Below are positions 3,891 through 57,987 of a stretch of 64,000 nucleotides of DNA, piece by piece. The notes beneath the pieces are model-generated. The model was not told the origin of the DNA, did not search any database, and saw only the letters and a list, made by a program, of their open reading frames with translations. The first letter of the stretch is position 1. Each line of letters begins with the position of its first letter. The DNA is from Escherichia coli (GTDB lineage: Bacteria; Pseudomonadota; Gammaproteobacteria; Enterobacterales; Enterobacteriaceae): assembly GCF_024502345.1 (NCBI RefSeq), contig NZ_JALDNN010000001.1. One strand, written 5' to 3'. The position numbers and the translations under genes were made by a program.

Positions 3891-4062
3891 TTGTATTGTT
3901 CAAATCACCAGCAAACACCGACATATTTGCAACTCAATATTCACAACAACCTTACACTGCGACACTATTTTCGCTATGGTTATGCGTAAGCATTGCTGTT
4001 GCTTCGTCACGGCAATATAATGAGAATTATTATCATTAAAAGATGATTTGAGGAGTAAGTAT

Positions 4063-9824: not shown

Positions 9825-9860
9825 AGCAAAAAAGCGCCTTTAGGGCGCTTTTTTACATTG
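9825..9860 (-). terminator. Distal copy of the lysT-operon terminator
   Basis: Hairpin aaaaaagcgccctaaaggcgctttttt (minus-strand sense); second copy of a ~55 bp direct repeat. Confidence 0.6.
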
Positions 9861-9978
9861 GTGGGTCGTGCAGGATGACTCGCTTCGCTCGCCCTTCGGG
9901 CCGTCGCCGCGAGCGGCTCCGTTGTTTCGCTGCGCTCAACTCAAACCTGCTGCAGGTTCGAATCTTTGAGTATCGCAG

Positions 9979-10012
9979 ATAGCAAAAAAGCGCCTTTAGG
10001 GCGCTTTTTTAC
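9979..10012 (-). terminator. Rho-independent terminator immediately after lysQ
   Basis: Same GC hairpin plus T-tract directly 3' of the last tRNA. Confidence 0.75.
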
Positions 10013-10014
10013 AT

Positions 10015-10090
10015 TGGTGGGTCGTGCAGGATTCGAACCTGCGACCAATTGATTAAAAGTCAACTGCTCTACCAACTGAGCTAACGACCC
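10015..10090 (-). tRNA. lysQ: tRNA-Lys (anticodon UUU)
   Basis: 76 nt; reverse complement reads GGGTCGTTAGCTCAGTTGGTAGAGCAGTTGACTTTTAATCAATTGGTCGCAGGTTCGAATCCTGCACGACCCACCA. Confidence 0.95.
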
Positions 10091-10123
10091 CTTGCGGGAT
10101 TATGCTGCTTTAATCATTCAGGA

Positions 10124-10199
10124 TGGTGGGTCGTGCAGGATTCGAACCTGCGACCAATTGATTAAAAGTCAACTGCTCTACCAACTGAGCTAACGACCC
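10124..10199 (-). tRNA. lysZ: tRNA-Lys (UUU)
   Basis: Identical 76 nt tRNA-Lys copy. Confidence 0.95.
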
Positions 10200-10247
10200 A
10201 TACGGGTGTTACCTGAAAGATTTTTACTCGGGGCCAATCTTTAAGAT

Positions 10248-10323
10248 TGGTGGGTCGTGCAGGATTCGAACCTGCGACCAATTGATTAAAAGTCAACTGC
10301 TCTACCAACTGAGCTAACGACCC
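10248..10323 (-). tRNA. lysY: tRNA-Lys (UUU)
   Basis: Identical 76 nt tRNA-Lys copy. Confidence 0.95.
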
Positions 10324-10326
10324 GAG

Positions 10327-10402
10327 TGGTGGGTGATGACGGGATCGAACCGCCGACCCCCTCCTTGTAAGGGAGGTGCTCTCCCAGCTGAGCTAATCAC
10401 CC
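10327..10402 (-). tRNA. valZ: tRNA-Val (UAC)
   Basis: 76 nt; reverse complement reads GGGTGATTAGCTCAGCTGGGAGAGCACCTCCCTTACAAGGAGGGGGTCGGCGGTTCGATCCCGTCATCACCCACCA. Confidence 0.95.
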
Positions 10403-10453
10403 GATACTGCGCTAGATACTACAAACTACTTCCACCGAACCCACCGTAATTAG

Positions 10454-10529
10454 TGGTGGGTCGTGCAGGATTCGAACCTGCGACCAATTGATTAAAAGTC
10501 AACTGCTCTACCAACTGAGCTAACGACCC
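10454..10529 (-). tRNA. lysW: tRNA-Lys (UUU)
   Basis: Identical 76 nt tRNA-Lys copy. Confidence 0.95.
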
Positions 10530-10531
10530 GG

Positions 10532-10607
10532 TGGTGGGTGATGACGGGATCGAACCGCCGACCCCCTCCTTGTAAGGGAGGTGCTCTCCCAGCTGAGCTA
10601 ATCACCC
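10532..10607 (-). tRNA. valT: tRNA-Val (UAC)
   Basis: Identical 76 nt tRNA-Val copy. Confidence 0.95.
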
Positions 10608-10742
10608 GATACTACGCTGGATACTACAACTAACTATGTTAGTGGTGGGTCGTGCAGGATGACTCGACTTCGTCTCGCCCTTCGGGCCGTTGCTGATGCA
10701 ACGTTATCCTTCACGTTTTACTACCGCTTCCACCTTAGCGAT

Positions 10743-10818
10743 TGGTGGGTCGTGCAGGATTCGAACCTGCGACCAATTGATTAAAAGTCAACTGCTCTAC
10801 CAACTGAGCTAACGACCC
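10743..10818 (-). tRNA. lysT: tRNA-Lys (UUU)
   Basis: Identical 76 nt tRNA-Lys copy; first gene of the operon. Confidence 0.95.
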
Positions 10819-10982: not shown

Positions 10983-11774
10983 TTACATCGCGTTCAGACG
11001 TTTTTGTGCCTGTTTAGCGCCATCAGTACCAGGGTATTTACTGATAACCTGCTGGTATACGGCTTTCGCTTTTGCGGTGTCACCTTTGTCCTGCATGATG
11101 ACGCCGACTTTAAACATCGCATCTGCAGCCTTTGGTGACTTCGGATAGTTTTTCACTACCGAAGCAAAATAGTACGCCGCATCATCTTTTTTACCCTTGT
11201 TGTAGTTTAACTGACCCAGCCAATAATTGGCGTTTGGCAGGTAAGTTGAATCAGGGTAATTTTTGATGAAATTCTGAAATGCCACCATTGCGTCATCCTG
11301 GCGGGATTTATCCTGCACCAGCGCAATAGCTGCATTGTAATCCGTGTTTGCATCACCGCTTTTCACCGGCGCGCCAGCATTCGCAGTACCAGCATCAGCT
11401 GTCGGCGTCGTTGATGCCGCCGCACCGCTTTGATCGACGCTGGTTGATTGCGCCGCTGCACCACCGCTGCTGAGGCTATCGATCTGCAACAGGATCTGCT
11501 TTTGCCGCTCCACGACCTGATTCAGTTGATACTGATTTTCCTGAATCTGACCACGCAGGGAATCAATATCGGATTGATTATCAGAGAGTTGTTGCTGGAG
11601 TTGGGTTAAAAGCTGGCTGTGAGCATTAGAAATACGCTCAAGTTGAGTGACGCGGTCTTCGACCGAGCCTGAGCCGACACTACTGATTGGTGCCTGAGCA
11701 AAAGCGGCCCAGGGGGCCGCTATACCAACCAGTAACGACAGACTCAATAGTTGATGTCTGAAGTTACTGCTCAT
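10983..11774 (-). CDS. cpoB: Cell division coordinator CpoB (TPR protein, Tol-Pal associated)
   Basis: 263 aa; signal peptide, coiled-coil region, TPR repeats; downstream of pal. Confidence 0.9.
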   Translation of the reverse strand: MSSNFRHQLLSLSLLVGIAAPWAAFAQAPISSVGSGSVEDRVTQLERISNAHSQLLTQLQQQLSDNQSDIDSLRGQIQENQYQLNQVVERQKQILLQIDSLSSGGAAAQSTSVDQSGAAASTTPTADAGTANAGAPVKSGDANTDYNAAIALVQDKSRQDDAMVAFQNFIKNYPDSTYLPNANYWLGQLNYNKGKKDDAAYYFASVVKNYPKSPKAADAMFKVGVIMQDKGDTAKAKAVYQQVISKYPGTDGAKQAQKRLNAM

Positions 11775-11783
11775 GCAATTCTC

Positions 11784-12329
<546 letters not shown>

Positions 12330-16620: not shown

Positions 16621-16769
16621 TTTACATCCCGGTAATGCAACAAAAGTTAGAGCTTTTAAACGCTGCTACTATACGCGCGCGATTGAGGTTTGGGAATGAG
16701 GGCAAGTTAAGGGAGCGTAAAAATTTATGGGCCTGGAGCGGCCCATAATTTTTTAAAGAGAATTCTGAT

Positions 16770-17063
16770 TTAAAAGAAGAAGAAAATCAGCCCGACAATG
16801 AGAACAATATCGGCAAGCAATGGGCAAAAAATCCCTTGCCAAAGAACCTTCTGCGGACGAAAGCCCACGCCGTGAATCACACCAGCACAGACGGCCCACA
16901 TCAGCAATAAACCATGCCAGATTTCCAGTTCACTGGTCTTCGCGGCAAAACGAGATGGGTCCCAAAACATACATCCTGCTAACAGAAGCGCCATCACGAA
17001 GGAAAGCGCCCGCAGGGGGCGCTTGTCCATTACCGCATACAAAGTCGCGATAATCTTACTCAT
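16770..17063 (-). CDS. ybgE: Small inner-membrane protein of the cyd operon
   Basis: 97 aa hydrophobic protein immediately downstream of cydX. Confidence 0.85.
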   Translation of the reverse strand: MSKIIATLYAVMDKRPLRALSFVMALLLAGCMFWDPSRFAAKTSELEIWHGLLLMWAVCAGVIHGVGFRPQKVLWQGIFCPLLADIVLIVGLIFFFF

Positions 17064-17176
17064 CAGATGTCTTCTTGACCGGCTTTGCCTGATTCGACGT
17101 GTTCAAGCGCCAGCGCGGTGATTACCCCAAACGAACAGGCAAGAAGCGTTCCCAGAATCCATGCGAAATACCACAT
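17063..17176 (-). CDS. cydX: Cytochrome bd-I oxidase accessory subunit CydX (37 aa)
   Basis: Manual translation of minus strand gives MWYFAWILGTLLACSFGVITALALEHVESGKAGQEDI; its stop overlaps the ybgE start; too short to appear in the ORF track. Confidence 0.85.
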   Translation of the reverse strand: MWYFAWILGTLLACSFGVITALALEHVESGKAGQEDI

Positions 17177-17190
17177 TTTTAGCTCCTTAC

Positions 17191-18330
17191 TTAGTACAGA
17201 GAGTGGGTGTTACGTTCAATATCTTCTTTGGTGATACGACCGAACATTTTCCAGTAACACCAGGCGGTGTAGAGCAGAATGATCGGTACCAGAACCACCG
17301 CAACCCAGGTCATGACGTTAAGCGTCAGCTGGCTGGAAGTTGCATCCCACATTGTCAGACTTGCGTTCATCATGGTGCTGGACGGCATCACAAACGGGAA
17401 CATTGCGATACCGGCTGTCAGGATGATGCAGGCCAGCGCCAGGGAGGAGAACACAAACGCCCACGCGGCTTTATCCATACGTGCAGTCAGGATGGTCAGC
17501 AGCGGCAGAACCACACCCAGTGCCGGAATAGCCCACAGAATTGGCGTGTTGTTGAAGTTAACCAGCCATGCGCCAGCTTCACGAACCACTTCTTTATTCA
17601 GTGGGTTAGAGGCTGCGTAATGGTCCATTGTCGATTTCACGACATAACCATCGATACCGTACATCACCCATACGCCAGCCAGTGCGAAACAGACCAGTGT
17701 CACCAGCGCAGCCACCTGAGCCGTTGCACGGGTACGCAGGTGCAGTTCGCCCACGGTACGCATTTGCAGATAGGTTGCGCCCTGAGTAATGATCATCCCT
17801 ACGCTCACCACGCCTGCCAGCAGGCCGAACGGGTTAAGCAACTGGAAGAAGTTACCGGTGTAGTACAGACGCAGATATTCATCAACGTTGAACGGTACGC
17901 CCTGCAACAGGTTACCGAACGCTACACCAATTACCAGCGGCGGAACGAAGCTACCAATGAAGATGCCCCAGTCCCACATGTTACGCCAGCGGGTTTCTTC
18001 AATCTTGGAGCGGTAGTCAAAACCGACCGGACGGAAGAACAAAGACGCCAGCACGAGGATCATCGCCACATAGAAGCCGGAGAACGCAGCGGCATAGACC
18101 ATCGGCCAGGCAGCAAAGAGTGCGCCGCCCGCGGTGATCAGCCAAACCTGGTTACCGTCCCAGTGTGGTGCAATGGAGTTAATCATAATTCGACGCTCGG
18201 TGTCGTTACGACCGAGGAAACGGGTGAGCATGCCCACCCCCATGTCGAAACCGTCAGTGACTGCAAAACCAATCAGCAGAACGCCAACCAGCAGCCACCA
18301 GATAAAACGCAATACTTCATAATCGATCAT
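17191..18330 (-). CDS. cydB: Cytochrome bd-I ubiquinol oxidase subunit II
   Basis: 379 aa polytopic membrane protein. Confidence 0.93.
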   Translation of the reverse strand: MIDYEVLRFIWWLLVGVLLIGFAVTDGFDMGVGMLTRFLGRNDTERRIMINSIAPHWDGNQVWLITAGGALFAAWPMVYAAAFSGFYVAMILVLASLFFRPVGFDYRSKIEETRWRNMWDWGIFIGSFVPPLVIGVAFGNLLQGVPFNVDEYLRLYYTGNFFQLLNPFGLLAGVVSVGMIITQGATYLQMRTVGELHLRTRATAQVAALVTLVCFALAGVWVMYGIDGYVVKSTMDHYAASNPLNKEVVREAGAWLVNFNNTPILWAIPALGVVLPLLTILTARMDKAAWAFVFSSLALACIILTAGIAMFPFVMPSSTMMNASLTMWDATSSQLTLNVMTWVAVVLVPIILLYTAWCYWKMFGRITKEDIERNTHSLY

Positions 18331-18345
18331 TTGACGACTCCTGTC

Positions 18346-19914
18346 TTAGCGTGCCGGCTGAGTAGTCGTGGAAGACTGCTCAAAGTGATAGCGACCGGTT
18401 TTCAGGCTGCTTGGGCCGAGGCGTGCAAACTTGAACATTAAGAACAATTCTGCCACCAGGAACAGGGTATACAGGCCGCAAATCAGCACCATTGAGAAGA
18501 TGAGATCGCCTGCGGTCAGTGACGAGTTCGCCACAGCTGTCGGCAGCACTTCACCGATAGCCCACGGTTGGCGGCCATATTCAGCCACGAACCAGCCCGC
18601 TTCTACAGCAATCCACGGCAGCGGAATACCGTACAGCGCGGCGCGCAGCAGCCATTTTTTCTCGCCAATGCGGTTGCGGATGACACTCCAGAAAGAGAGC
18701 GCGATGATTGCCAGCAGCAGGAAGCCACACGCCACCATGATACGGAACGCGAAGTACAGCGGCGCTACACGCGGAATGGAGTCTTTGGTTGCCTGTTGAA
18801 TCTGCGCTTCAGTCGCATCAGCCACGTTTGGCGTATAGCGTTTCAGCAGCAGACCGTAACCGAGGTCTTTCTTCATGCTATTGAACTGGTCACGAACTGC
18901 CTGGTCGGTAGAACCAGAACGCAGTTGCTCGAGCAGAGAGTACGCCTTCATCCCGTTACGAATGCGTTCTTCATGCTGCACCATCAGTTCTTTCAGGCCG
19001 ATAACTGGAGTATCCACGGAACGCGTTGCAATGATGCCCAGCGCGTAAGGGATCTGGATCGCAAATTTGTTCGTCTCCTCTTCCTGATCAGGAATGCCGA
19101 ACAGAGTAAAGGCAGCAGGCGCAGGTTGCGTTTCCCACTCGGCTTCAATAGCAGCCAGTTTGGTTTTCTGCACGTCGCCCATTTCGTAACCAGATTCATC
19201 ACCCAGAACAATAACAGACAGAACGGCAGCCATACCGAAGCTGGCAGCGATAGCAAAGGAGCGTTTAGCGAAGGCGAAGTCACGACCTTTCAGCATATAC
19301 CATGCGCTGATACCGAGGATGAACATCGCGCCAGTCACATAACCAGACGCTACAGTGTGAACGAATTTCACCTGAGCAACCGGGTTAAGCACCAGCTCGG
19401 AGAAGCTCACCATCTCCATACGCATAGTTTCAAAGTTGAAATCGGACGCGATTGGGTTTTGCATCCAGCCGTTCGCAACCAGAATCCACAGTGCGGACAG
19501 GTTTGAACCGAGCGCCACCAGCCAGGTGACACACATATGCTGAACTTTACCCAGACGATCCCAACCGAAGAAGAACAGACCTACAAAGGTGGATTCGAGG
19601 AAGAAGGCCATCAGACCTTCGATTGCCAGCGGCGCACCGAAGATATCCCCTACATAGTGGGAATAGTAAGACCAGTTAGTCCCGAACTGGAACTCCATGG
19701 TCAGACCGGTAGCCACACCCAGAGCGAAGTTGATACCAAACAACTTGCCCCAGAACTTGGTCATATCTTTATAAATCTGTTTGCCGGAAAGGACGTAGAC
19801 CGTTTCCATAATGGCCAGCAGGAACGCCATACCGAGCGTCAGTGGCACAAAAAGGAAGTGGTACATCGCGGTCAAGGCAAACTGTAAGCGCGACAGTTCG
19901 ACTATATCTAACAT
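18346..19914 (-). CDS. cydA: Cytochrome bd-I ubiquinol oxidase subunit I
   Basis: 522 aa from [12 protein letters not shown]; ORF-track start is one codon upstream. Confidence 0.93.
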
Positions 19915-20251
19915 CATGACTCCTTGCTCATCGCATGAAGACTCCGAGAGTGAACCCCGTTAGAAAGGGTCACACGCATGCCCCAATACAAAATTATTTG
20001 CTCGCCTCTATCGTTGCCATTTCATCAAAAGAGGAAAAGACAATGATAAAAAAGTTACAAATATGTTAATGAATAAACCAAATTGATCCCGTAATTATAT
20101 TACGCCGCAAAATCCTTACAATAAACAGGTTTTTATTGAGCAAATTTGCATTTTTCGACAGTGATCAATTTATAGCGAAATTGTCACGATCTCACCAATT
20201 TGATCTACGACAATTTATCGTGTTTTGCAGATTTTTTTCAAGAATTAAAAA

Positions 20252-20265
20252 TTGATTTATATCAA
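20252..20265. promoter_or_regulatory. FNR-type palindrome in the long AT-rich cydA upstream region
   Basis: Perfect TTGAT-N4-ATCAA (ttgatttatatcaa) about 340 bp upstream of the cydA start codon. Confidence 0.5.
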
Positions 20266-20719
20266 AACCAACCAAATATGTTAATTATGTATAAACCATA
20301 GATCATTGGTGATTTTATTGTTAATTTATTGTGAAATATTTATGCAACACAATTATTACAATGAAAAGGTATAGATAAAAAACCAGTGTTTTATTTAACA
20401 GAACCGCCCAATCAACTTTTTATAATACCAATTGATTAGAGTAGCCAATTTGTTGCTATTTTACATAACATATTTTTATCAAAGTTAATTGATTGTTGCC
20501 TTTATGAGCACCGACCGTAAGCCCGTTATGTTATTGTTTCATTAGTAATAATCACTTAAATGTATCGATGAAACAGGTATGACTTACCGGGAGTGATTGT
20601 TTCTGAGTGAACAGAGGCCACTTTCGCCTGATAAATGAAAAATGAGCGATTTTTGCAAGTTAGTTTTTCTATAGCCGAGTACGCTCAGCGCCTCGCTTGA
20701 TTACAATGAGGTTGCTGCT

Positions 20720-21664
20720 ATGAGTCCTGATAATATCGGTTCGGCTGTCAATCGCTTCTCAGGTTGGCCATCTAATGATCCTCTAAAAACAGATGAAGAA
20801 TCAATGAAATCACCCGTGACTGTGCAAGTAATAAAGATGATTGCCGCCATCCTTGACCCACATCGGATAGTCGTTGGAATTGATACACTTTATACAACGC
20901 AGCGCGAAACATTTACCTCAGAGAGTCAACAGCTCATTGAATCAGCATTGCAAACACTTCATGTGATGAATTTAAATAATCTGGAAACAAATCGCGATGA
21001 AGAAGGTCACTATCTGGCTTTTGAATATAACGTTGACACCTCTGACAGAATAACCGTTTCTGCTTATAATGAAAAAAAGCCTGGCTGCTATGGCCAATGT
21101 CTTTTAATACAGGATGACGAAACAGACTTATTTAACCTGATAAAAATTAAAATTTTCGAAGCCAGGCATAATTATGTCGCTCAATTGATGAGCGATCCGG
21201 AATTTATGTTCAAATTCAGTTATAGCGCTCAACAAAATAGATTAGAACCTCATCTTCTGGTTCCCGCTTATTTCCCTCTAAAAACAAACGAACCGGTTAC
21301 GCAAGAGGATGTACTGTTACTTTATCGTTTCTTTAAAATGAATGATGATTTTAATAAATTAACATCAGAGGAATACATGAGTATCATGACTCCTCTGATG
21401 AAGTGTGAGCGTAGCGTCCACGACAACAACAGGTATGTGACGGGCAAAGATACCCATCTTCTGGACTATCCTCCTTCTGGTAACCAGATACATTTCCATA
21501 TTTTTCCTGACGAATCAGCAACACTAGTCCTTTATTTTTCAAACAATGACCTTGAATGTTTCGTCTTTGAAAGAGATATTCCTAGCCAGTATCGCTTTTT
21601 CAAAATGTTTACCAATCTGGCACTGGTTATAGATCAGTTAACCGAAGCCAATAAAATACTTTAA
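20720..21664 (+). CDS. Hypothetical protein, 314 aa, low-GC, no recognisable domain
   Basis: Long ORF with GAGG RBS 9 nt upstream; GC visibly lower than flanking core genes; polar Ser/Thr/Asn-rich N-terminus; absent from the K-12 arrangement. Confidence 0.6.
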   Translation: MSPDNIGSAVNRFSGWPSNDPLKTDEESMKSPVTVQVIKMIAAILDPHRIVVGIDTLYTTQRETFTSESQQLIESALQTLHVMNLNNLETNRDEEGHYLAFEYNVDTSDRITVSAYNEKKPGCYGQCLLIQDDETDLFNLIKIKIFEARHNYVAQLMSDPEFMFKFSYSAQQNRLEPHLLVPAYFPLKTNEPVTQEDVLLLYRFFKMNDDFNKLTSEEYMSIMTPLMKCERSVHDNNRYVTGKDTHLLDYPPSGNQIHFHIFPDESATLVLYFSNNDLECFVFERDIPSQYRFFKMFTNLALVIDQLTEANKIL

Positions 21665-21744
21665 TTTTCTATATATCCCTATGGCAAATATTGCTAAACA
21701 ATGCCTGGGGATTAATTTTTATTACTCACGGAAAGATTTAAATA

Positions 21745-22167
21745 ATGATACCATCTCAGATCTCTTTCAATACCCTTCCAGTCAATGCAACATACGCTTC
21801 AGAGACAACAGTTGACACACAAAAATTCTCTGACATCCTCTACTCAGCGGGGTGTTCCCTAAAGGATATGGCTTATCTGAGCAGATGTCTGGCATCAATA
21901 CACCCGACTCTCGCCAAAAACATTTATGAAACAGAAAATCTCAGCGATCAAAAATTACTGCATATTGATTGCCGTAGTACAAATGACATCAAGATAAATA
22001 TCTTTTTTGGTCAGCAACGAGAAGGATTAATTGAAATTAGTTCTGACACAGTTATTTTTTCGATACTGTCTTCATTGATTGACTCCGCCATTTCTAAATT
22101 TCAACATCAAAACCCCGTTAACGGTTCAGTTAATCCTGAACTATTGTATAAGGATTATACTGATTAA
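21745..22167 (+). CDS. Hypothetical protein, 140 aa, low-GC
   Basis: ORF 80 bp downstream of the 314 aa ORF, same strand and same composition; Ser/Thr/Ile-rich N-terminus. Confidence 0.5.
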   Translation: MIPSQISFNTLPVNATYASETTVDTQKFSDILYSAGCSLKDMAYLSRCLASIHPTLAKNIYETENLSDQKLLHIDCRSTNDIKINIFFGQQREGLIEISSDTVIFSILSSLIDSAISKFQHQNPVNGSVNPELLYKDYTD

Positions 22168-22714
22168 ACCCACCCAGTCGCGAAAAATGGCCTGCGTTAT
22201 TGCCAGACGTAATAAAACCGTTGATTAACGTTACTCATACTGGTAGCACCTTCATGTACCTCTCTTTTTTACGAAAAATCAAAAGAGCTAACTAAGGTCA
22301 TAATTCGCATGAATCATTAACCATTTGTTATTTTCAACATTATTTTTACATTAAGCAGAAATGAATTGCAGTGAAATTCGACTTAAATCTTATGAAATGC
22401 ATTTACTCATGGCTAAAACCACGTCACAAAAATGCAAATTAGAAGTAGATCACAATTATCTCAATACATTAAATCAAGTTAATTTTAAAAATTTAACATT
22501 CATGTCATTAGTTGACATAACACACTGAATTAACATGGAAATTTAAAAACACACTTTAAACAATCATTTCCCGAAAGACATTTTGAAAATAGATCAATTG
22601 CAACATTACGGTCAGATAAAGACACTCCTGTGATATTAAACCTGTGCCGTTATGAACGGCCATAAATACGACGTGTGTAACTTATTTTACTCTCTGTCTT
22701 ACAAAGGATTACCC

Positions 22715-23164
22715 ATGAAGAAAGCAACACTTGTGATTGGCGTTATTGGCGCGGACTGCCATGCAGTAGGCAATAAAGTTCTGGACCGCGTTTTTAGCAA
22801 CCACGACTTCAGAGTCATTAATCTGGGCGTAATGGTCAGCCAGGACGAATATATTGATGCTGCCATCGAAACTGGCGCTGACGCGATTATCGTCTCCTCT
22901 ATCTATGGGCATGGCGATATCGACTGTCTGGGCATGCGCGAACGCTGCATCGAGCGTGGACTGGGTGACATCCTCCTCTATGTGGGCGGTAACCTGGTGG
23001 TCGGAAAACATGACTTCGCTGACGTGGAAACCAAGTTCAAAGAGATGGGATTTGATCGCGTCTTTGCCCCAAGTCATGACTTAGAAGATGTTTGTCAGCT
23101 GATGGCCCACGATATCAATCAACGTCATGACGTTGATACTCGTATTCTTGAAGAGGCTATCTGA
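22715..23164 (+). CDS. glmS: Glutamate mutase (methylaspartate mutase) S subunit, B12-binding
   Basis: 149 aa from [22 protein letters not shown] (cobalamin-binding DxHxxG-type motif); RBS aagga upstream; ORF-track start at 22652 is an extension. Confidence 0.85.
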
Positions 23165-24552
23165 TGCAAATCGTCTCTGTCGATATTGGATCGACGTGGA
23201 CCAAAGCTGCCCTCTTCACCCGGGAGGGGGACGCGTTAACGTTGGTTAACCACGTACTGACCCCAACCACCACCCATCATCTGGCGAAGGGGTTTTTCTC
23301 CAGCCTGAACCAGGTGTTAAACGTAGATAATGCCCTCCCCCTGTTAAACAGCGGTGAGGTTGCATTGAAGTATTCCTCCTCTGCCAAAGGTGGGCTGGCG
23401 GTTGCCGCAATGGGATTGGTGCCTTCTATCACCCTGGAAACCGCGAAAGTAACCGCTCACTCTGCGGGGGCTAAAATTGCGCAATATTACGCCTACAAGC
23501 TGAACCGCCGTGATATCCAGGCACTGGAAGAAACGCAGCCCGATATTCTCTTGTTCACCGGCGGCACCGACGGCGGAGAAGAAAGCTACGGACTGAATAA
23601 CGCCCGTGTGCTGGCAGAATCCAAACTCGACTGCGCCATTATTTATGCCGGAAACCGGGATATTCAGGACGAGGTGCAGGAGATCCTCGGGCATAAAGAC
23701 CTGACCATCGTCGACAATGTTCTGCCCGATCTTGACCATCCGAACCCTTTAGCCGCACGCCAGGCTATTTGCGACATATTCCTTAAACGCATCGTTAAAG
23801 GGAAAGGGCTGGATGTCATTGTTGATAAAACAGGCGAAGAACCAATGCCGACACCATGGACGGTCTTTGAACTGGTCAAGGCAATCAGTAACGTCGATCA
23901 CAGCTGGAAAGAGTTCATGCTGATCGACATGGGCGGCGCAACCACCGATGTTTATTCCGCCGGTGCCAACACGCTCTCGCCCGACACCGTTTTACACGGC
24001 GTACCGGAACCCTTCGTAAAACGGACGGTGGAAGGCGATCTGGGAATGCGCGTCTCGGCAGTGGTGGTTGGTGAAAGTGCGAAAGAGTTAGTCAATGTGA
24101 ATTTTGCTCAGCAACCCGCACAGCTGGACGCTTTTTATCATTACCTCCGTCATCTAGTCGCTCATCCCGACTACTTACCCGCAAATGCAGAAGAGAAATA
24201 TTTCGATACCGTCCTGGCCGGACTGTGTGTGGGTTATGCCACCGAAAGACATGCGGGCACCAAAAAAGAGGTCTGCACCTGCGTCGGCAATGTCGATTTA
24301 CAGATGGGACGTGACCTGACAACCGTGCGTAAAGTCGTCGGATCCGGCGGATGGCTCTCGCGTGCCAGTCAGTTCGATATGCATCACTGGTTGAAATACC
24401 GCGAGTTAAACGACGACGGTAAACGCATTCTCTTACCGACCGAATTTGAATATTACCGCGATTCCCGGGGGCTATTACCACTGCTGGCAAACGTCGCCAG
24501 AGTCGATCCGCTGGCCGCCGCGCGCACCAGTATTCAATGCTTAACCCTATAA
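23164..24552 (+). CDS. glmL: Glutamate mutase-associated protein GlmL (MutL-like)
   Basis: 462 aa; start overlaps the glmS stop (ATGA); sits between the S and E subunits as in clostridial glutamate mutase operons. Confidence 0.8.
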   Translation: MQIVSVDIGSTWTKAALFTREGDALTLVNHVLTPTTTHHLAKGFFSSLNQVLNVDNALPLLNSGEVALKYSSSAKGGLAVAAMGLVPSITLETAKVTAHSAGAKIAQYYAYKLNRRDIQALEETQPDILLFTGGTDGGEESYGLNNARVLAESKLDCAIIYAGNRDIQDEVQEILGHKDLTIVDNVLPDLDHPNPLAARQAICDIFLKRIVKGKGLDVIVDKTGEEPMPTPWTVFELVKAISNVDHSWKEFMLIDMGGATTDVYSAGANTLSPDTVLHGVPEPFVKRTVEGDLGMRVSAVVVGESAKELVNVNFAQQPAQLDAFYHYLRHLVAHPDYLPANAEEKYFDTVLAGLCVGYATERHAGTKKEVCTCVGNVDLQMGRDLTTVRKVVGSGGWLSRASQFDMHHWLKYRELNDDGKRILLPTEFEYYRDSRGLLPLLANVARVDPLAAARTSIQCLTL

Positions 24553-24570
24553 CAATTAAGGCTGCAATCA

Positions 24571-26016
24571 ATGGAACTTCGAAATAAGAAATTAACCCAT
24601 GACGAATTCATGACCGAGCGGCAACAGGTACTGAAAACCTGGGAAACCGGCAAGGATGTTGAAAACTTTGAAGATGGCGTTAAATACCAACAAAACATTC
24701 CTGAGCATAAACGCTTCTCTCATGCCCTGCTGAAAGCAGACAAGGAAGGTAAAACCCTTAGCCAACCGCGCGCAGGTGTGGCGCTGATGGACGAACACAT
24801 CGAACTGCTGAAAACACTACAAGAAGAGTGCGATCTGCTGCCAAGCACCATCGATGCATATACCCGTCTGAATCGGTACGAAGAAGCGGCTGTAGGGATT
24901 AAAAAATCCATCGAAGCCGGAACCTCTAAACTGAACGGTTTACCGGTAGTTAACCATGGTGTCGCAGCTTGCCGTCGCCTCACCGAAACCCTGCAAAAAC
25001 CGCTACAGATCCGCCACGGCACGCCAGATGCGCGTCTGCTGGCTGAAATCTCAATGGCCAGCGGCTTTACCAGTTATGAAGGCGGTGGCATTTCCTACAA
25101 CATTCCGTATGCCAAACGTGTAACGCTGGAAAAATCGATCCGCGACTGGCAGTACTGCGACCGTTTAATGGGGATGTACGAAGAACACGGGATCCGCATC
25201 AACCGCGAACCGTTTGGCCCACTAACGGGTACGCTGATCCCGCCGTTTATCTCGCACTCTATCGCGATAATCGAAGGCTTGCTGGCGCTGGAACAGGGTG
25301 TGAAATCTATCACCGTTGGTTATGGCCAGGTCGGCAGCCTGACGCAGGATGTTGCGGCGATCCAGTCTCTGCGTGAACTTGCACACGAATACTTTCAGAG
25401 CTATGGCTATACCGACTATGAATTAAGTACCGTGTTTCACCAGTGGATGGGCGGCTTTCCGGAAGACGAATCGAAAGCGTTCGCTATTATCTCCTGGGGC
25501 GCAGCCGTCGCGGGGATGTCTGGTGCCACCAAACTCATCACCAAAAGTCCGCACGAAGCCTGGGGCATTCCGACTGCCGCTGCCAACATTCAGGGGCTGA
25601 AAGCCTCCCGCCAGATGCTCAACATGGTCAATGAGCAGAAATTCCCGCCGTGCCCTGCGGTTGAACTGGAAATTGAACTGATTAAGAGCGAGGTTCGCGC
25701 AGTACTGAATAAAGTGTTCGAACTGGGTAATGGTGATATTGCGCGCGGAACGGTGCTGGCATTTGAAGCGGGCGTACTGGATGTGCCGTTTGCGCCAGCC
25801 GCCTGCAACGCGGGCAAAATTCTTCCGGTCCGTGACAACACCGGCGCGATACGCGTACTGGAAGCCGGAGCCGTTCCATTGCCAAAAGATATTCTCGACC
25901 TCCACCACGATTACGTTGCGGAACGCGCACGCTGTGAAGGACGCCAACCGACATTCCAGATGGTTGTAGATGACATCAATGCTGTATCCCACAGTAAATT
26001 AATAGGAAGACCATAA
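24571..26016 (+). CDS. glmE: Glutamate mutase (methylaspartate mutase) E subunit
   Basis: 481 aa, typical E-subunit size and operon position. Confidence 0.85.
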   Translation: MELRNKKLTHDEFMTERQQVLKTWETGKDVENFEDGVKYQQNIPEHKRFSHALLKADKEGKTLSQPRAGVALMDEHIELLKTLQEECDLLPSTIDAYTRLNRYEEAAVGIKKSIEAGTSKLNGLPVVNHGVAACRRLTETLQKPLQIRHGTPDARLLAEISMASGFTSYEGGGISYNIPYAKRVTLEKSIRDWQYCDRLMGMYEEHGIRINREPFGPLTGTLIPPFISHSIAIIEGLLALEQGVKSITVGYGQVGSLTQDVAAIQSLRELAHEYFQSYGYTDYELSTVFHQWMGGFPEDESKAFAIISWGAAVAGMSGATKLITKSPHEAWGIPTAAANIQGLKASRQMLNMVNEQKFPPCPAVELEIELIKSEVRAVLNKVFELGNGDIARGTVLAFEAGVLDVPFAPAACNAGKILPVRDNTGAIRVLEAGAVPLPKDILDLHHDYVAERARCEGRQPTFQMVVDDINAVSHSKLIGRP

Positions 26017-27257
26017 TGAAAATAAAACAGGCCCTGTTCACCGCTGGCTATTCCTCATTCTATTTCGATGACCAGCAGGCGATAAAAAACGGAGCGGGTC
26101 ATGACGGCTTTTTTTATACCGGGGAGCCGGTAACACAGGGGTTTAACGCCGTTCGTCAGGCCGGGGAGTGCGTATCGGTACAGTTGATTCTGGAAAACGG
26201 CGCGGTCGCCGTAGGTGACTGTACTGCCGTACAGTATTCCGGGGCAGGCGGTCGCGATCCACTGTTCCTCGCAGAGCACTTTATTCCGTTCCTCAACGAC
26301 CATATCAAGCCATTACTGGTAGGCCGCGATGTGGATGCTTTCCTGCCGAATGCCCGTTTCTTCGACAAATTGCGTATTGACGGCAACTTGCTGCATACCG
26401 CCGTGCGCTACGGATTATCACAGGCGCTGCTTGATGCTACCGCGCTGGCAACCGGCCGTCTGAAAACTGAAGTGGTCTGTGATGAATGGCAGTTGCCACG
26501 CGTGGCGGAATCCATTCCATTATTTGGTCAGAGCGGCGACGATCGATATATCGCCGTCGATAAGATGATCCTTAAAGGCATCGACGTGCTGCCCCATGCG
26601 CTGATTAATAACGTCGAAGAGAAGCTGGGCTTTAAAGGTGAAAAACTGCGCGAATATGTCCACTGGCTGTCGGATCGCATTCTGAGCAAGCGCACCAGCG
26701 CACGCTACCACCCAACCCTGCACATCGATGTATACGGCACTATCGGTCTGATCTTCGATATGGATCCGCTTCGCTGTGCGCAATACATCGCCAGCCTGGA
26801 AAAAGAAGCGCAAGGCCTGCCGCTCTACATCGAAGGGCCGGTCGATGCCGGTAACAAGCCCGATCAAATTCGCCTGCTGACCGCGATTACCAAAGAGCTG
26901 ACGCGCCTCGGTTCCGGCGTGAAAATTGTGGCCGATGAATGGTGTAACACCTACCAGGATATTGTTGATTTCACTGATGCTGCCAGTTGTCACATGGTGC
27001 AAATCAAAACCCCGGATCTGGGCAGTATTCACAACATCGTCGATGCGGTTCTTTACTGCAACAGCCACAGCATGGAAGCGTACCAGGGCGGCACCTGCAA
27101 TGAAACTGATGTCAGTGCCCGCACCTGTGTCCACGTCGCCCTTGCCGCTCGCCCTATGCGTATGCTGGTAAAACCAGGGATGGGCTTTGACGAAGGCCTC
27201 GATATCGTCTTCAACGAAATGAATCGTACTATCGCGCTGTTGCAGGCTAAGGATTAA
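26016..27257 (+). CDS. mal: 3-Methylaspartate ammonia-lyase (methylaspartase)
   Basis: 413 aa; N-terminus (FYFDDQ.AIK.GAGHDGF.YTG ... AVQYSGAGGRDPLFLA) closely resembles clostridial methylaspartase (enolase superfamily). Confidence 0.9.
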   Translation: MKIKQALFTAGYSSFYFDDQQAIKNGAGHDGFFYTGEPVTQGFNAVRQAGECVSVQLILENGAVAVGDCTAVQYSGAGGRDPLFLAEHFIPFLNDHIKPLLVGRDVDAFLPNARFFDKLRIDGNLLHTAVRYGLSQALLDATALATGRLKTEVVCDEWQLPRVAESIPLFGQSGDDRYIAVDKMILKGIDVLPHALINNVEEKLGFKGEKLREYVHWLSDRILSKRTSARYHPTLHIDVYGTIGLIFDMDPLRCAQYIASLEKEAQGLPLYIEGPVDAGNKPDQIRLLTAITKELTRLGSGVKIVADEWCNTYQDIVDFTDAASCHMVQIKTPDLGSIHNIVDAVLYCNSHSMEAYQGGTCNETDVSARTCVHVALAARPMRMLVKPGMGFDEGLDIVFNEMNRTIALLQAKD

Positions 27258-27260
27258 CAA

Positions 27261-28631
27261 ATGGCTCGTTCTTTTAAAGTCTTATCGCCAACGGCAATCC
27301 TCGGGTATGGATTCCCGGAAGAGAGCTTCCGCAAAGCGATGGCAGAATCGCCCGATCTGATCGCCGTTGATGCAGGCTCTTCCGATCCAGGCCCCCACTA
27401 CCTCGGGGCAGGCAAACCGTTTACCGATCGCGCAGGGGTCAAGCGCGATCTGCGCTATATGATCACCGCAGGCGTGCAAAATAATATACCGGTGGTGATC
27501 GGAACGGCTGGCGGTTCTGGTGCCGCACCACACCTGGAGTGGTGCCGAGAAATAATTCATGAGATTGCCCGGGAAGAGCACCTCTCGTTCTCGATGGCGC
27601 TGATCCCGGCAGACGTTGACAAAGCCATCGTCCACCAGGCGCTGGATAACGGCAAAATCACGGCGCTGGAGTTTGTCCCGCCGTTAACCCACGACGCGAT
27701 TGACGAAAGTACGTATATCGTCGCGCAAATGGGCATCGAACCCTTCCAGCGTGCGCTAAAAGAAGGCGCGCAAGTGGTGCTGGGTGGGCGCGCTTACGAC
27801 CCGGCCTGCTTTGCTGCGCTACCGATCATGCAAGGCTTTGATGAAGGTCTGGCGCTGCATTGTGGGAAAATCCTTGAGTGCGCAGCAATCGCCGCAACGC
27901 CCGGCTCAGGCTCTGACTGTGCGATGGGCATCATTGATGACAACGGCTTTACGCTGAAGACATTTAATCCGAAGCGTAAATTTACCGAAACGTCAGCAGC
28001 TGCACACACACTGTATGAGAAATCCGATCCTTACTTCCTGCCAGGACCTGGCGGCGTGTTGAATCTGAAAGGCTGCACATTTAAAGCGGTCAATAACGGC
28101 GAAGTGTACGTCAGCGGTTCTAAGCATGAAGAAACGCCGTATGCCCTGAAACTGGAAGGTGCACGACGGGTGGGCTTCCGCTGTCTGACCATCGCCGGAA
28201 CGCGCGACCCGATTATGATCGCCGGGATCGATAAAATCATCGATGAAGTCAAAACCAGCGTTTCGCGTAACCTGTCGCTCGACGATGACAGCATTCGCAT
28301 CAATTTCCACCTGTACGGCAAAAACGGGGTGATGGGAGACCATGAACCGATGCAAACTGCCGGGCATGAGCTGGGGATTGTCCTTGATGTAGTTGCACCG
28401 ACCCAGGAAATTGCCAACAGCGTTTGCTCGCTGGTGCGCTCTACCATGCTGCACTACGGCTATGAAAACCGCATCGCTACCGCAGGCAATCTGGCGTTCC
28501 CGTTCTCCCCTTCTGATATCCAGGGCGGGCCGGTATACGAATTTTCCATATATCACCTGATTGAAGCCAACGACGCTCTGCGTTTTGATTTCCATATTGA
28601 ACAGGTGACGCCAGAAGGAGTTCAGGCATGA
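27261..28631 (+). CDS. Uncharacterised conserved protein (tentatively AtuA-like/DUF1446 type), translationally coupled to mal
   Basis: 456 aa ORF starting 3 nt after the mal stop; normal GC; family assignment is from memory and needs an HMM search. Confidence 0.7.
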   Translation: MARSFKVLSPTAILGYGFPEESFRKAMAESPDLIAVDAGSSDPGPHYLGAGKPFTDRAGVKRDLRYMITAGVQNNIPVVIGTAGGSGAAPHLEWCREIIHEIAREEHLSFSMALIPADVDKAIVHQALDNGKITALEFVPPLTHDAIDESTYIVAQMGIEPFQRALKEGAQVVLGGRAYDPACFAALPIMQGFDEGLALHCGKILECAAIAATPGSGSDCAMGIIDDNGFTLKTFNPKRKFTETSAAAHTLYEKSDPYFLPGPGGVLNLKGCTFKAVNNGEVYVSGSKHEETPYALKLEGARRVGFRCLTIAGTRDPIMIAGIDKIIDEVKTSVSRNLSLDDDSIRINFHLYGKNGVMGDHEPMQTAGHELGIVLDVVAPTQEIANSVCSLVRSTMLHYGYENRIATAGNLAFPFSPSDIQGGPVYEFSIYHLIEANDALRFDFHIEQVTPEGVQA

Positions 28632-28945
28632 AACAGTCAATTGTCTCACTGGCGCAAGTCATTCGTTCGAAAAATGCCGGACCTTACGAACTGGTTTTAG
28701 ATATTTTATTTAAAACGAAAGAAAACTATGAGCGAGTTAAATCATCAGGGCAATTAACCCCAGAACTGATTGCGCGCTTATATCATGTTGAACCTGACTT
28801 TATTCATCGTATTGTCTGGTTTGATCCTTCTAACGCAGTAAAAATCGTCATGCCACGAGATATTATCTCCGGGAATGTAGGTGACAATGATGTCTATGGT
28901 GCACAGCAACATGCACCTTTATTAAATATGAGTTTCGATTTGTAA
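28628..28945 (+). CDS. Small uncharacterised protein (tentatively DUF4387 type), overlaps upstream gene by 4 nt
   Basis: 105 aa ORF with ATGA overlap to the 456 aa ORF; last gene of the operon. Confidence 0.6.
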   Translation: MKQSIVSLAQVIRSKNAGPYELVLDILFKTKENYERVKSSGQLTPELIARLYHVEPDFIHRIVWFDPSNAVKIVMPRDIISGNVGDNDVYGAQQHAPLLNMSFDL

Positions 28946-29084
28946 AAATCCGAATACTTTTAGCCAACTGACATCCCGTCACTTATTACAGTTCAACACT
29001 TCAGCTATTTGTAAGGTTGTAATAGCAGGTAGATGCCTGAATCTCTATTCAGGCATCTACTTCTCCTGATTCTGATTTATCGCC

Positions 29085-29378
29085 GTGCACCTGATGGAGG
29101 AAAAAATGAAGAAAATAAGTTTAACCACGATGATTCTTTTGGCGCTGGTACTTGGAATGATTATCGGCGTAGTGCTCAATAACACTGTTTCACCGGAAAC
29201 AGCAAAACTCTATGCGCAAGAAATATCGATATTCACGACGATTTTCTTACGACTGATAAAAATGATTATCGCTCCGTTAGTGGTCTCTACCCTGGTGGTA
29301 GGTATTGCTAAAATGGGAGATGCCAAAGCCCTTGGTCGTATTTTTTCTAAAACACTCTTTTTATTTATTTGCGCCTCA
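29085..29378 (+). pseudogene. 5' fragment (about 98 codons) of a GltP/DctA-family dicarboxylate/amino-acid:cation symporter, truncated by IS1
   Basis: N-terminus [23 protein letters not shown]...[30 protein letters not shown] matches the conserved first TM segments of GltP-type symporters; frame runs into the IS1 left end and stops at 29405. Confidence 0.8.
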
Positions 29379-29433
29379 GGTGATGCTGCCAACTTACTGA
29401 TTTAGTGTATGATGGTGTTTTTGAGGTGCTCCA

Positions 29434-29709
29434 GTGGCTTCTGTTTCTATCAGCTGTCCCTCCTGTTCAGCTACTGACGGGGTGGTGCGTAACGGCAAAA
29501 GCACCGCCGGACATCAGCGCTATCTCTGCTCTCACTGCCGTAAAACATGGCAACTGCAGTTCACTTACACCGCTTCTCAACCCGGTACGCACCAGAAAAT
29601 CATTGATATGGCCATGAATGGCGTTGGATGCCGGGCAACCGCCCGCATTATGGGCGTTGGCCTCAACACGATTTTCCGCCATTTAAAAAACTCAGGCCGC
29701 AGTCGGTAA
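29434..29709 (+). CDS. insA: IS1 InsA protein
   Basis: 91 aa [43 protein letters not shown]... Confidence 0.95.
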
Positions 29710-30131
29710 CCTCGCGCATACAGCCGGGCAGTGACGTCATCGTCTGCGCGGAAATGGACGAACAGTGGGGATACGTCGGGGCTAAATCGCGCCAGCGCTG
29801 GCTGTTTTACGCGTATGACAGGCTCCGGAAGACGGTTGTTGCGCACGTATTCGGTGAACGCACTATGGCGACGCTGGGGCGTCTTATGAGCCTGCTGTCA
29901 CCCTTTGACGTGGTGATATGGATGACGGATGGCTGGCCGCTGTATGAATCCCGCCTGAAGGGAAAGCTGCACGTAATCAGCAAGCGATATACGCAGCGAA
30001 TTGAGCGGCATAACCTGAATCTGAGGCAGCACCTGGCACGGCTGGGACGGAAGTCGCTGTCGTTCTCAAAATCGGTGGAGCTGCATGACAAAGTCATCGG
30101 GCATTATCTGAACATAAAACACTATCAATAA
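29628..30131 (+). CDS. insB: IS1 InsB reading frame (expressed as InsAB' transposase by -1 frameshift)
   Basis: 167 aa ORF in the -1 frame overlapping the insA 3' end; classic IS1 organisation. Confidence 0.9.
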
Positions 30132-30146
30132 GTTGGAGTCATTACC

Positions 30147-30555
30147 AATCGCCGTTATTAGCTAAAGAATGAATATTAACAATAATATCGGGATGTAACT
30201 TTGTGAATTCATGTAAATTTGGGATTAACCAGTGGGTACTAAAAGTAGGATTAACGGCAAGTTCAATAACCTGAACCGTAGGCTGCCAGGTCATAATGGT
30301 ATTGGTATCGCGTTCCAGCTTATTTAATGTTTCTTTTACTATCCCCAGGTAATACTTCCCTGCATCATTAAGAAAAATGCGTTTTTTAGAGTGTGAAAAT
30401 AACGGAGTACGTAAAAATTCCTCCAGCGCACTTACTTGTCTGAATACTGCACTTTGGGTTAACGCTAACTCCTCTGCCGCTCTGGTATAACTTTCATGAC
30501 GTGCGACGACCTCAAAAGTCACCAGCAGTTCCGTTTTAGGTATTTTCCCTCGCAT
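30147..30555 (-). pseudogene. 5' fragment (about 136 codons) of a LysR-family transcriptional regulator, truncated by IS1
   Basis: N-terminal HTH typical of LysR (TFEVVARHESYTRAAEELALTQSAVFRQVSALEEFL); reading frame runs into the IS1 right end. Confidence 0.8.
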
Positions 30556-31107
30556 AATGCCGTCCCTTAAAAATAGTTTAAACCATCAAAAATACATTAC
30601 TTATTACGAAGTAATGGTAACAAAGCAGCAATAAATAATTTATAAGAATCATGATTGACATTTATAAACCAGTAAGGCTGGCGTGACAAATATCTTAATC
30701 AGATAATAATAATCCGAAAAGCACAGCGCCTTTCGAATTATCCGGAATCACATTAAGTGAAAATTATTAAATTGATATCATTTATCATATCTGTGGATAT
30801 TATGATAAACAATCAACAAAGATTTTATTTTTGATTTATAGCATATCCATCTAAGAATTTTTGCGATGCTGCAATATCCGGGGTAAAGACCCGATCCTGG
30901 CTGACAAATGGCACGACTTGACGAAAAGCGGTGAACATCGCTTTTGTTGATTTACTTAACGCTACGGTCAAACGCTGGGAAGCCAGTGCATCAGGTAACG
31001 ATTCGAAATTCGCCGTCGTTCTTATTCGTGGCTTGCGGTCGGTCGCGGCAATCCACAGTGGCTGTGGTCATGCAGTCAAGCCTGCAGTCAGATTTCGACC
31101 GTGGTTA

Positions 31108-31140
31108 ACCGTTTAAGGTATAAAAAAGGCCATCATACGA
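31108..31140 (-). terminator. Rho-independent terminator downstream of sucD
   Basis: Minus-strand hairpin ggccatcgtatgatggcc followed by TTTTTTAT. Confidence 0.65.
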
Positions 31141-31220
31141 TGGCCAACCATGTCGAAACCGACAGCCCTTCGCCATTCCTGTAGAGGGAAGCGGCGAGGG
31201 CTATTTCTTATTACAGATAT
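31110..31220 (-). ncRNA. sdhX: Possible SdhX (RybD) sRNA from the sucD 3' UTR
   Basis: About 100 nt between the sucD stop and the terminator, the position where the 3'-UTR-derived sRNA lies in K-12; sequence identity not verified. Confidence 0.4.
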
Positions 31221-32090
31221 TTATTTCAGAACAGTTTTCAGTGCTTCACCGATATCCGCCAGGCTGCGAACGGTTTTCACGCCTGCGGCTTCCAGAGCAG
31301 CGAATTTCTCATCCGCAGTCCCTTTCCCACCGGCAATGATGGCACCCGCGTGGCCCATACGTTTGCCTTTCGGCGCAGTCACACCAGCGATGTAACCCAC
31401 AACTGGCTTGGTAACGTGCTCTTTGATGTACGCAGCTGCTTCTTCTTCAGCGCTACCGCCGATCTCACCGATCATCACGATCGCTTCGGTCTGCGGATCT
31501 TTTTCGAACATTTCGAGAATGTCGATAAAGTTAGAGCCAGGGATCGGGTCACCGCCGATACCGACACAGGTCGACTGACCGAAACCGTAATCCGTGGTCT
31601 GTTTAACCGCTTCATAGGTCAGTGTACCGGAACGGGAAACGATACCCACTTTACCCGGTTTGTGAATGTGACCCGGCTGGATACCGATTTTGCATTCACC
31701 CGGAGTGATAACGCCCGGGCAGTTCGGGCCGATCATACGAACGCCGGCTTCGTCCAGTTTCACTTTCACAGTCAGCATATCCAGCGTCGGGATGCCTTCA
31801 GTGATGGTGATAATCAGTTTGATGCCTGCATCAATAGCTTCCAGAATGGAGTCTTTGCAGAACGGTGCTGGTACGTAGATAACAGAAGCGGTAGCGCCAG
31901 TAGCAGCAACAGCTTCACGCACGGTGTTGAACACCGGCAGGCCGAGGTGGGTAGTACCGCCTTTACCTGGGGTTACGCCGCCAACCATTTTAGTGCCGTA
32001 TGCAATGGCCTGTTCTGAGTGGAAAGTCCCCTGGCTACCAGTAAAGCCCTGGCAGATAACCTTGGTGTTTTTATCAATTAAAATGGACAT
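31221..32090 (-). CDS. sucD: Succinyl-CoA synthetase alpha subunit
   Basis: 289 aa. Confidence 0.95.
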
Positions 32091-33329: not shown

Positions 33330-33525
33330 TGTCGGTCACCCGTAGGCCTGATAAGACGTGTAAGCGTCGCATCTGGCATCGCTTGTCGGATGCGGCGCGA
33401 GCGCCTTATCCGACCTACATCGGTGCTTCCCGTAGGCCTGATAAGACGCGTTAAGCGTCGCATCAGGCTTCAATTGCCGGAGAAGGCGATAATGTCTTAT
33501 CCGGTCTACAGTGCAGGTGAAACTT
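33330..33525. repeat. BIME/REP cluster in the sucB-sucC intergenic region
   Basis: Repeated gcctgataagacg...cgcatc palindromic units. Confidence 0.6.
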
Positions 33526-37739: not shown

Positions 37740-37865
37740 GTTACGCCTGATGCGCTGCGCTTATCAGGCCTACGGGTAATGACTTGTAGGCCGGATAAGG
37801 CGTTCACGCCGCATCCGGCACTGGTTGCCTGATGCGACGCTTGCGCGTCTTATCAGGCCTACGGT
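37740..37865. repeat. REP elements in the sdhB-sucA intergenic region
   Basis: gcctgatgcgctgcgcttatcaggcctac and repeated copies. Confidence 0.6.
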
Positions 37866-41094: not shown

Positions 41095-41802
41095 GAATAA
41101 CGCCCACATGCTGTTCTTATTATTCCCTGGGGACTACGGGCACAGAGGTTAACTTTCTGTTACCTGGAGACGTCGGGATTTCCTTCCTCCGGTCTGCTTG
41201 CGGGTCAGACAGCGTCCTTTCTATAACTGCGCGTCATGCAAAACACTGCTTCCAGATGCGAAAACGACACGTTACAACGCTGGGTGGCTCGGGATTGCAG
41301 GGTGTTCCGGAGACCTGGCGGCAGTATAGGCCGTTCACAAAATCATTACAATTAACCTACATATAGTTTGTCGGGTTTTATCCTGAACAGTGATCCAGGT
41401 CACGATAACAACATTTATTTAATTTTTAATCATCTAATTTGACAATCATTCAACAAAGTTGTTACAAACATTACCAGGAAAAGCATATAATGCGTAAAAG
41501 TTATGAAGTCGGTATTTCACCTAAGATTAACTTATGTAACAGTGTGGAAGTATTGACCAATTCATTCGGGACAGTTATTAGTGGTAGACAAGTTTAATAA
41601 TTCGGATTGCTAAGTACTTGATTCGCCATTTATTCGTCATCAATGGATCCTTTACCTGCAAGCGCCCAGAGCTCTGTACCCAGGTTTTCCCCTCTTTCAC
41701 AGAGCGGCGAGCCAAATAACAAACGGGTAAAGCCAGGTTGATGTGCGAAGGCAAATTTAAGTTCCGGCAGTCTTACGCAATAAGGCGCTAAGGAGACCTT
41801 AA

Positions 41803-55209: not shown

Positions 55210-55345
55210 AGCACCGATGCCTGATGCGACGCTTGACGCGTCTTATCAGGCCTACGCATTTCCTGCAATTTATTGAATTTGCACAAATTTGTAGGCTGGA
55301 TAAGGCGTTCACGCCGCATCCGGCATCTGGGCTCGATTGCCTGAC
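55210..55345. repeat. REP elements between dtpD and phrB
   Basis: gcctgatgcgacgcttgacgcgtcttatcaggcctac and a second copy. Confidence 0.6.
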
Positions 55346-57277: not shown

Positions 57278-57378
57278 TACTGCTCCTGAACGGTTTACAG
57301 GAGTAAGTGTAGACGGCGATAAGAAAAAAACCGCCAGCGTTTCCACTAGCGGTTTTCAATGTATTCAAAACTCAGCAA

Positions 57379-57585: not shown

Positions 57586-57794
57586 ACTTTTCTCCCCCTT
57601 TTGTATCTACCCGGTGAATAGCACCGGAAAAATGAATTTGTTTATCTGATGAAAATAGTACCGCCTTTTGTGTAATTTTACTACTCATCCGACCACTTAT
57701 TTTTGCTTATTGATGGTTTATTTACATTCACCCTGTAATTAAGTTACACAAAAGTTAAATTAATACTAAACATTAGTTAAATCATGGCTTTTGC

Positions 57795-57820
57795 CATTTT
57801 TATACTTTTTTTACACCCCG
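57795..57820 (+). promoter_or_regulatory. KdpE operator upstream of the kdpFABC promoter
   Basis: T-rich catttttatactttttttacacccc element about 80-100 bp upstream of kdpF, matching the remembered KdpE binding region. Confidence 0.5.
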
Positions 57821-57897
57821 TCCGCAGATTTTTGCGAAATCTTTGCAGCCAGAATTCTACCCTTCCGGTATCACTTTTAGGCCACTGGAGGTGCACT

Positions 57898-57987
57898 GTG
57901 AGTGCAGGCGTGATAACCGGCGTATTGCTGGTGTTTTTATTACTGGGTTATCTGGTTTATGCCCTGATCAATGCGGAGGCGTTCTGA
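57898..57987 (+). CDS. kdpF: Kdp ATPase small subunit KdpF (29 aa, GTG start)
   Basis: GTG-initiated [29 protein letters not shown]; stop overlaps the kdpA ATG. Confidence 0.85.

Follow-up and report, generated by a model that had tools for sequence, protein, structure and literature searches.

A very small membrane subunit of cytochrome bd-I in Escherichia coli, CydX, is a single-helix subunit positioned alongside transmembrane helices 1, 4, 5, 6 and 7 of CydA, near haem b558 (PMC8951039). It is needed for bd oxidase activity according to PMC4325964, and work cited by PMC4325964 and PMC8951039 found that both the assembly and the activity of the oxidase depend on CydX in E. coli K-12, where the protein has the same sequence as the one described here. 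Two other small E. coli subunits provide useful comparisons. AppX/CbdX (YccB), the small subunit of cytochrome bd-II, shares the Pfam family PF08173 with CydX, is also single-helix and attaches to AppC, the homologue of CydA, at almost the site that CydX occupies (PMC8951039), but unlike CydX it is encoded in the app/cbd operon. KdpF resembles CydX as a single-helix accessory subunit of fewer than 40 residues encoded within the operon of its own complex; it differs in that neither its family (PF09604) nor its complex is related to that of CydX, in being the first cistron of its operon whereas CydX is the third, and in its GTG start.

The window, meaning the whole 64-kb stretch of DNA that was analysed, represents the E. 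coli chromosome from within galE to kdpB and is reversed relative to K-12. The gene order around the locus of interest is cydA-cydB-cydX-ybgE-ybgC-tolQ, the same as in K-12, and the features of the cyd operon are as follows:

18346..19914, minus strand: cydA, cytochrome bd-I subunit I, 1569 nt, an ORF with a RefSeq annotation
17191..18330, minus strand: cydB, cytochrome bd-I subunit II, a 379-aa ORF with a RefSeq annotation at the matching position
17183..17188, minus strand: putative Shine-Dalgarno sequence AAGGAG, read from the sequence, 6 nt upstream of the cydX ATG
17063..17176, minus strand: cydX (formerly ybgT), ATG at 17176..17174, TGA stop at 17065..17063, 37 codons
16770..17063, minus strand: ybgE, a 97-aa cyd operon protein, an ORF matching PF09600 (E = 9e-34) and NF007881 (185 bits)
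16725..16748, minus strand: terminator-like hairpin (9-bp stem, 5 G-C pairs) followed by a T-run, from a consensus scan

The annotated start of cydA is the second ATG of its frame, the mechanical ORF starting at 19917. Downstream, the gap between cydB and ybgE is filled by the cydX frame, and cydB adjoins cydX on its 5' side with its stop codon at 17191..17193. Read on the minus strand, the sequence across cydX is ...CTGTAC TAA GTAAGGAGCTAAAA ATG TGG TAT ... GAC ATC TGATGAGTAAG..., and translation of the frame gives the full-length 37-aa protein MWYFAWILGTLLACSFGVITALALEHVESGKAGQEDI. A 37-codon cydX gene at this position, absent from the ORF track, had been proposed in an earlier sequence-only reading of this DNA, and its coordinates proved exact from ATG to TGA. 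Over 176 nt, from the last part of cydB through the whole of cydX into the beginning of ybgE, identity to E. coli K-12 MG1655 is 100%, and the K-12 counterpart bears the annotation cydX, b4515, 'cytochrome bd-I accessory subunit CydX'. By the same reading, its proposal would fall if alignment to reference CydX showed a shifted frame or an early stop codon; alignment of these 176 nt to the K-12 reference revealed neither within cydX. An Rfam scan of the whole window placed no RNA family at or adjoining the gene.

At the protein level, the match to chain X of the cryo-EM structure PDB 6RKO ('Cytochrome bd-I ubiquinol oxidase subunit X') extends over all 37 residues, which is consistent with a protein that belongs to the cytochrome bd-I complex; the same sequence is present in nine PDB entries, 6RKO and eight others. 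Both family models that describe the subunit score far over their curated cut-offs, Pfam PF08173 (YbgT_YccB) giving 53.9 bits against 26.2 (E = 1.8e-14) and the CydX equivalog model of NCBIfam, TIGR02106 (cyd_oper_ybgT), giving 70.7 bits against 31.6. The length of 37 aa falls within the roughly 30-40 aa of the CydX family, with one hydrophobic transmembrane helix, and the gene lies on the same strand directly 3' of cydB in the cydAB operon, as is expected for the family. The locus was found in 5,425 of 5,426 complete E. coli genomes, with cydX annotated in every genome record among the matches listed. Two divergent strains were examined, and within the gene they show no variant other than GAA to GAG, which is synonymous; the protein accession, WP_000270282.1, is unchanged. 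Taken by its sequence, the product here is the reference protein itself and no variant, and is already known. Compared with K-12 CydX (YbgT, b4515; PDB 6RKO/6RX4 chain X), no difference occurs within the gene: the DNA of the gene and its junctions, the protein of 37 aa, the place in the operon and the ybgE overlap all agree. Further away, upstream of cydA, the strain background departs from that of K-12. It is thus virtually certain, judging from homology and operon position, that 17063..17176 is the canonical E. coli cydX, third cistron of cydA-cydB-cydX-ybgE, whose 37-residue product has a single transmembrane helix, and no evidence to the contrary came to light.

Because 86 ORFs of at least 20 aa occur within 6 kb around cydX, several of them antisense to it (for example the plus-strand frame 17085..17234, which runs over the cydX bases), a 37-codon ORF by itself carries little weight, and the assignment therefore depends on homology and not on ORF length. 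The same abundance of short frames, including antisense frames on the very same bases, is what could be said for a chance ORF without protein product in a non-coding spacer between cydB and ybgE. Such a spacer would have to match, by accident, a protein chain resolved by cryo-EM, exceed the cut-offs of two family models, carry a strong Shine-Dalgarno site and vary only synonymously in the divergent E. coli examined; we reject this reading on the homology and the identity to the structure chain, and regard it as extremely improbable.

The possibility that the frame encodes the paralogous small subunit of bd-II, AppX/CbdX (formerly YccB), and not CydX, draws on the fact that PF08173 is common to both proteins and on a weak match to the CbdX model NF011333 (E = 1.3e-4). 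This match, of 21.7 bits where the cut-off is 57, spans residues 1-17 only, whereas the score against TIGR02106 is that of a CydX equivalog; moreover, the gene comes after cydB and not appB, and its product is identical to K-12 CydX. With a score below the cut-off and the wrong operon (membership requires the NF011333 cut-off together with an appCB operon), the paralogue was rejected and is, if anything, slightly less probable still than a chance ORF. Nothing was found in favour of a decayed pseudogene copy whose frame is shifted or cut short compared with reference CydX, and the complete nucleotide identity to K-12 over 176 nt and the full-length translation speak against it, so that this reading is rejected as next to impossible.

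The 14-nt spacer between cydB and cydX (17177..17190) contains the AAGGAG hexamer, which is a likely functional Shine-Dalgarno site for cydX, with a predicted duplex with the 16S 3' end of -8.4 kcal/mol. The best 17-residue Kyte-Doolittle hydropathy window of the protein is 2.12, and the two values together fit the picture of a single-helix subunit. The structural role of CydX is taken here from the literature, while the present analysis contributes the ORF, the sequence identity, the family membership and the operon context. CydX would probably be translated from a polycistronic cyd mRNA by way of its own Shine-Dalgarno site. At its 3' end, the gene was earlier thought to overlap ybgE by a four-base ATGA; an overlap does exist, but it amounts to one base, since the TGA stop of cydX (17065..17063) and the ATG of ybgE (17063..17061) have only position 17063 in common (TGATG). 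The K-12 annotation has the identical 1-nt overlap (cydX 774196..774309, ybgE 774309..774602), and this arrangement suggests possible translational coupling to ybgE. The hairpin at 16725..16748 starts 21 nt 3' of the ybgE stop and may mark the end of the cydABX-ybgE transcript, although the terminator scan is a pattern match only and its two sites are near background (about 1.1 expected in shuffles).

The second small gene cited alongside cydX in the sequence-only reading, kdpF, was confirmed with its 29 aa, its GTG start and its coordinates:

57898..57987, plus strand: kdpF, 29-aa subunit of the Kdp K+-ATPase (KdpFABC), GTG start at 57898 with GGAGG upstream

The gene lies directly upstream of kdpA and, like cydX, shares one base with the next gene, its TGA stop and the kdpA ATG meeting at 57987 (TGATG). 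It also resembles cydX in being 100% identical to its K-12 counterpart (b4513) and in encoding a protein identical to a solved chain, in this case chain D of PDB 6HRA. The family models for KdpF are Pfam PF09604 and NCBIfam NF011332/TIGR02115; the scores exceed the curated cut-offs (76.7 bits against 56 for NF011332, 28.9 against 21.2 for PF09604) and the gene has the position expected for the family. A longest-ORF rule mis-starts this gene, giving 67 aa from the ATG at 57784 (57784..57987) in place of 29 aa from the GTG at 57898, and it also mis-starts kdpA at the TTG at 57843 (57843..59660, plus strand) in place of the ATG at 57987. The mechanical ORF list therefore mis-started kdpF rather than leaving it invisible, and kdpF is as well known a gene as cydX.

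No fewer than four annotated genes in the window are 37 codons long or shorter, namely cydX, kdpF and the following two, which overlap each other between gltA and sdhC:

41490..41597, plus strand: ybgU, 35 aa, 100% identical to K-12, with a Pfam PF23495 match
41581..41613, plus strand: ybgV, 10 aa, GTG start, 100% identical to K-12

The broader claim that length cut-offs hide very small membrane-protein genes, illustrated with cydX and kdpF, is borne out for cydX, which a default ORF threshold of 60 aa would hide, and a length-thresholded ORF track would miss ybgU and ybgV too; kdpF, being mis-started, is not an example of it. cydX is absent only from such a length-thresholded ORF list and not from public annotation. 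As a textbook functional small protein that is annotated in K-12 and by the NCBI pipeline and resolved by cryo-EM, its recovery has little biological import, and the practical value lies in the calibration of ORF calling, where a lower length threshold or a homology-based rescue is needed.

We screened the whole window for small membrane-protein genes using 457 intergenic start/ORF combinations of 10-70 aa. To pass, a combination needed both a Shine-Dalgarno duplex at least as strong as -5 kcal/mol and a hydropathy score of 1.6 or more in a 17-aa window. Four combinations passed: cydX, the known gene ybfA, a plus-strand frame at 17023..17121 that is antisense to cydX/ybgE, and a frame at 3896..4039 that opens with TTG. 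Both of these frames are probably spurious. The screen missed kdpF only because the longest-start rule let the kdpA ORF swallow it. It had also been suggested that similar small ORFs could exist in the accessory segment, a speculation that the Shine-Dalgarno and hydrophobic-helix screen did not support. In a relaxed screen of the accessory-segment gaps, with 185 combinations, only three overlapping frames passed (29305..29405), and these are not credible genes as they lie in a truncated symporter pseudogene and run into the left end of an IS1 element. A further unannotated translated small protein in the accessory segment (about 20290..31122) or in other gaps of the window appears improbable to us; among the candidates would be kinds to which the screen is blind, namely non-hydrophobic proteins, leaderless or weak-Shine-Dalgarno genes and ORFs nested in longer genes.

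The accessory segment is an island that stands between cydA and sucD in place of the K-12 genes mngR-mngA-mngB, and it begins about 370 nt upstream of cydA. Its genes encode a methylaspartate mutase (glmS, glmL, glmE), a methylaspartate ammonia-lyase, an AtuA-family protein and a DUF4387 protein, as well as a dicarboxylate symporter truncated by IS1. A query spanning the island (window positions 19900..31500) is covered to 80% or more by over 1,100 E. coli genomes, O157:H7 among them. The copy found here is shortened, as full-length copies add a class I fumarate hydratase, cobO and a LysR regulator. The remaining features noted in the island and at its right edge are:

20720..21664 and 21745..22167, plus strand: two ORFs of 314 aa and 140 aa, each 'hypothetical protein' in RefSeq
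29085..30146: dicarboxylate/amino-acid:cation symporter gene truncated by an IS1 element
31122..31220, minus strand: small regulatory RNA SdhX (sdhX), from the 3' end of sucD, 99 of 101 nt matched to K-12

The 314-aa and 140-aa ORFs lie at the left end of the island in a stretch of low GC content (34-38%). Searches of Pfam, NCBIfam and PADLOC gave no significant match for either, and the 314-aa ORF, the only one of the two searched against PDB sequences, has no match there. In the truncated symporter gene, the left inverted repeat of IS1 is exact at 29379..29401 and the insA/insB frames occupy 29434..30131; strain 14EC033 has the same symporter-IS1 arrangement. At the other end, SdhX stops exactly where K-12 homology does, and its terminator thus lies directly against the right junction of the island.

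Divergence from K-12 upstream of cydA was observed to grow towards the island junction. Identity to K-12 is about 97% over a 2.9-kb alignment taking in cydA and most of cydB, but only about 83% over the segment 19872..20290, most of which is the approximately 370 nt upstream of cydA, a part of the cyd regulatory region. A further difference from K-12 is located near 57315..57325, where the 9.6-kb block that K-12 has between ybfA and ybgA (rhsC-ybfB-ybfO-ybfC-ybfQ-ybfL-ybfD) is missing; strain 14EC033 has a different Rhs module at this ybfA-ybgA site. Elsewhere in the window, the Rfam scan identified several elements at the gathering score: the CpoB/ybgF thermometer at 11745..11883 (minus strand), seven tRNAs and two RtT elements at 9859..10818 (minus strand), and two naRNA4 copies and one ES036 element distributed among 33345..33415 (minus strand), 37789..37859 (plus strand) and 55248..55290 (minus strand).
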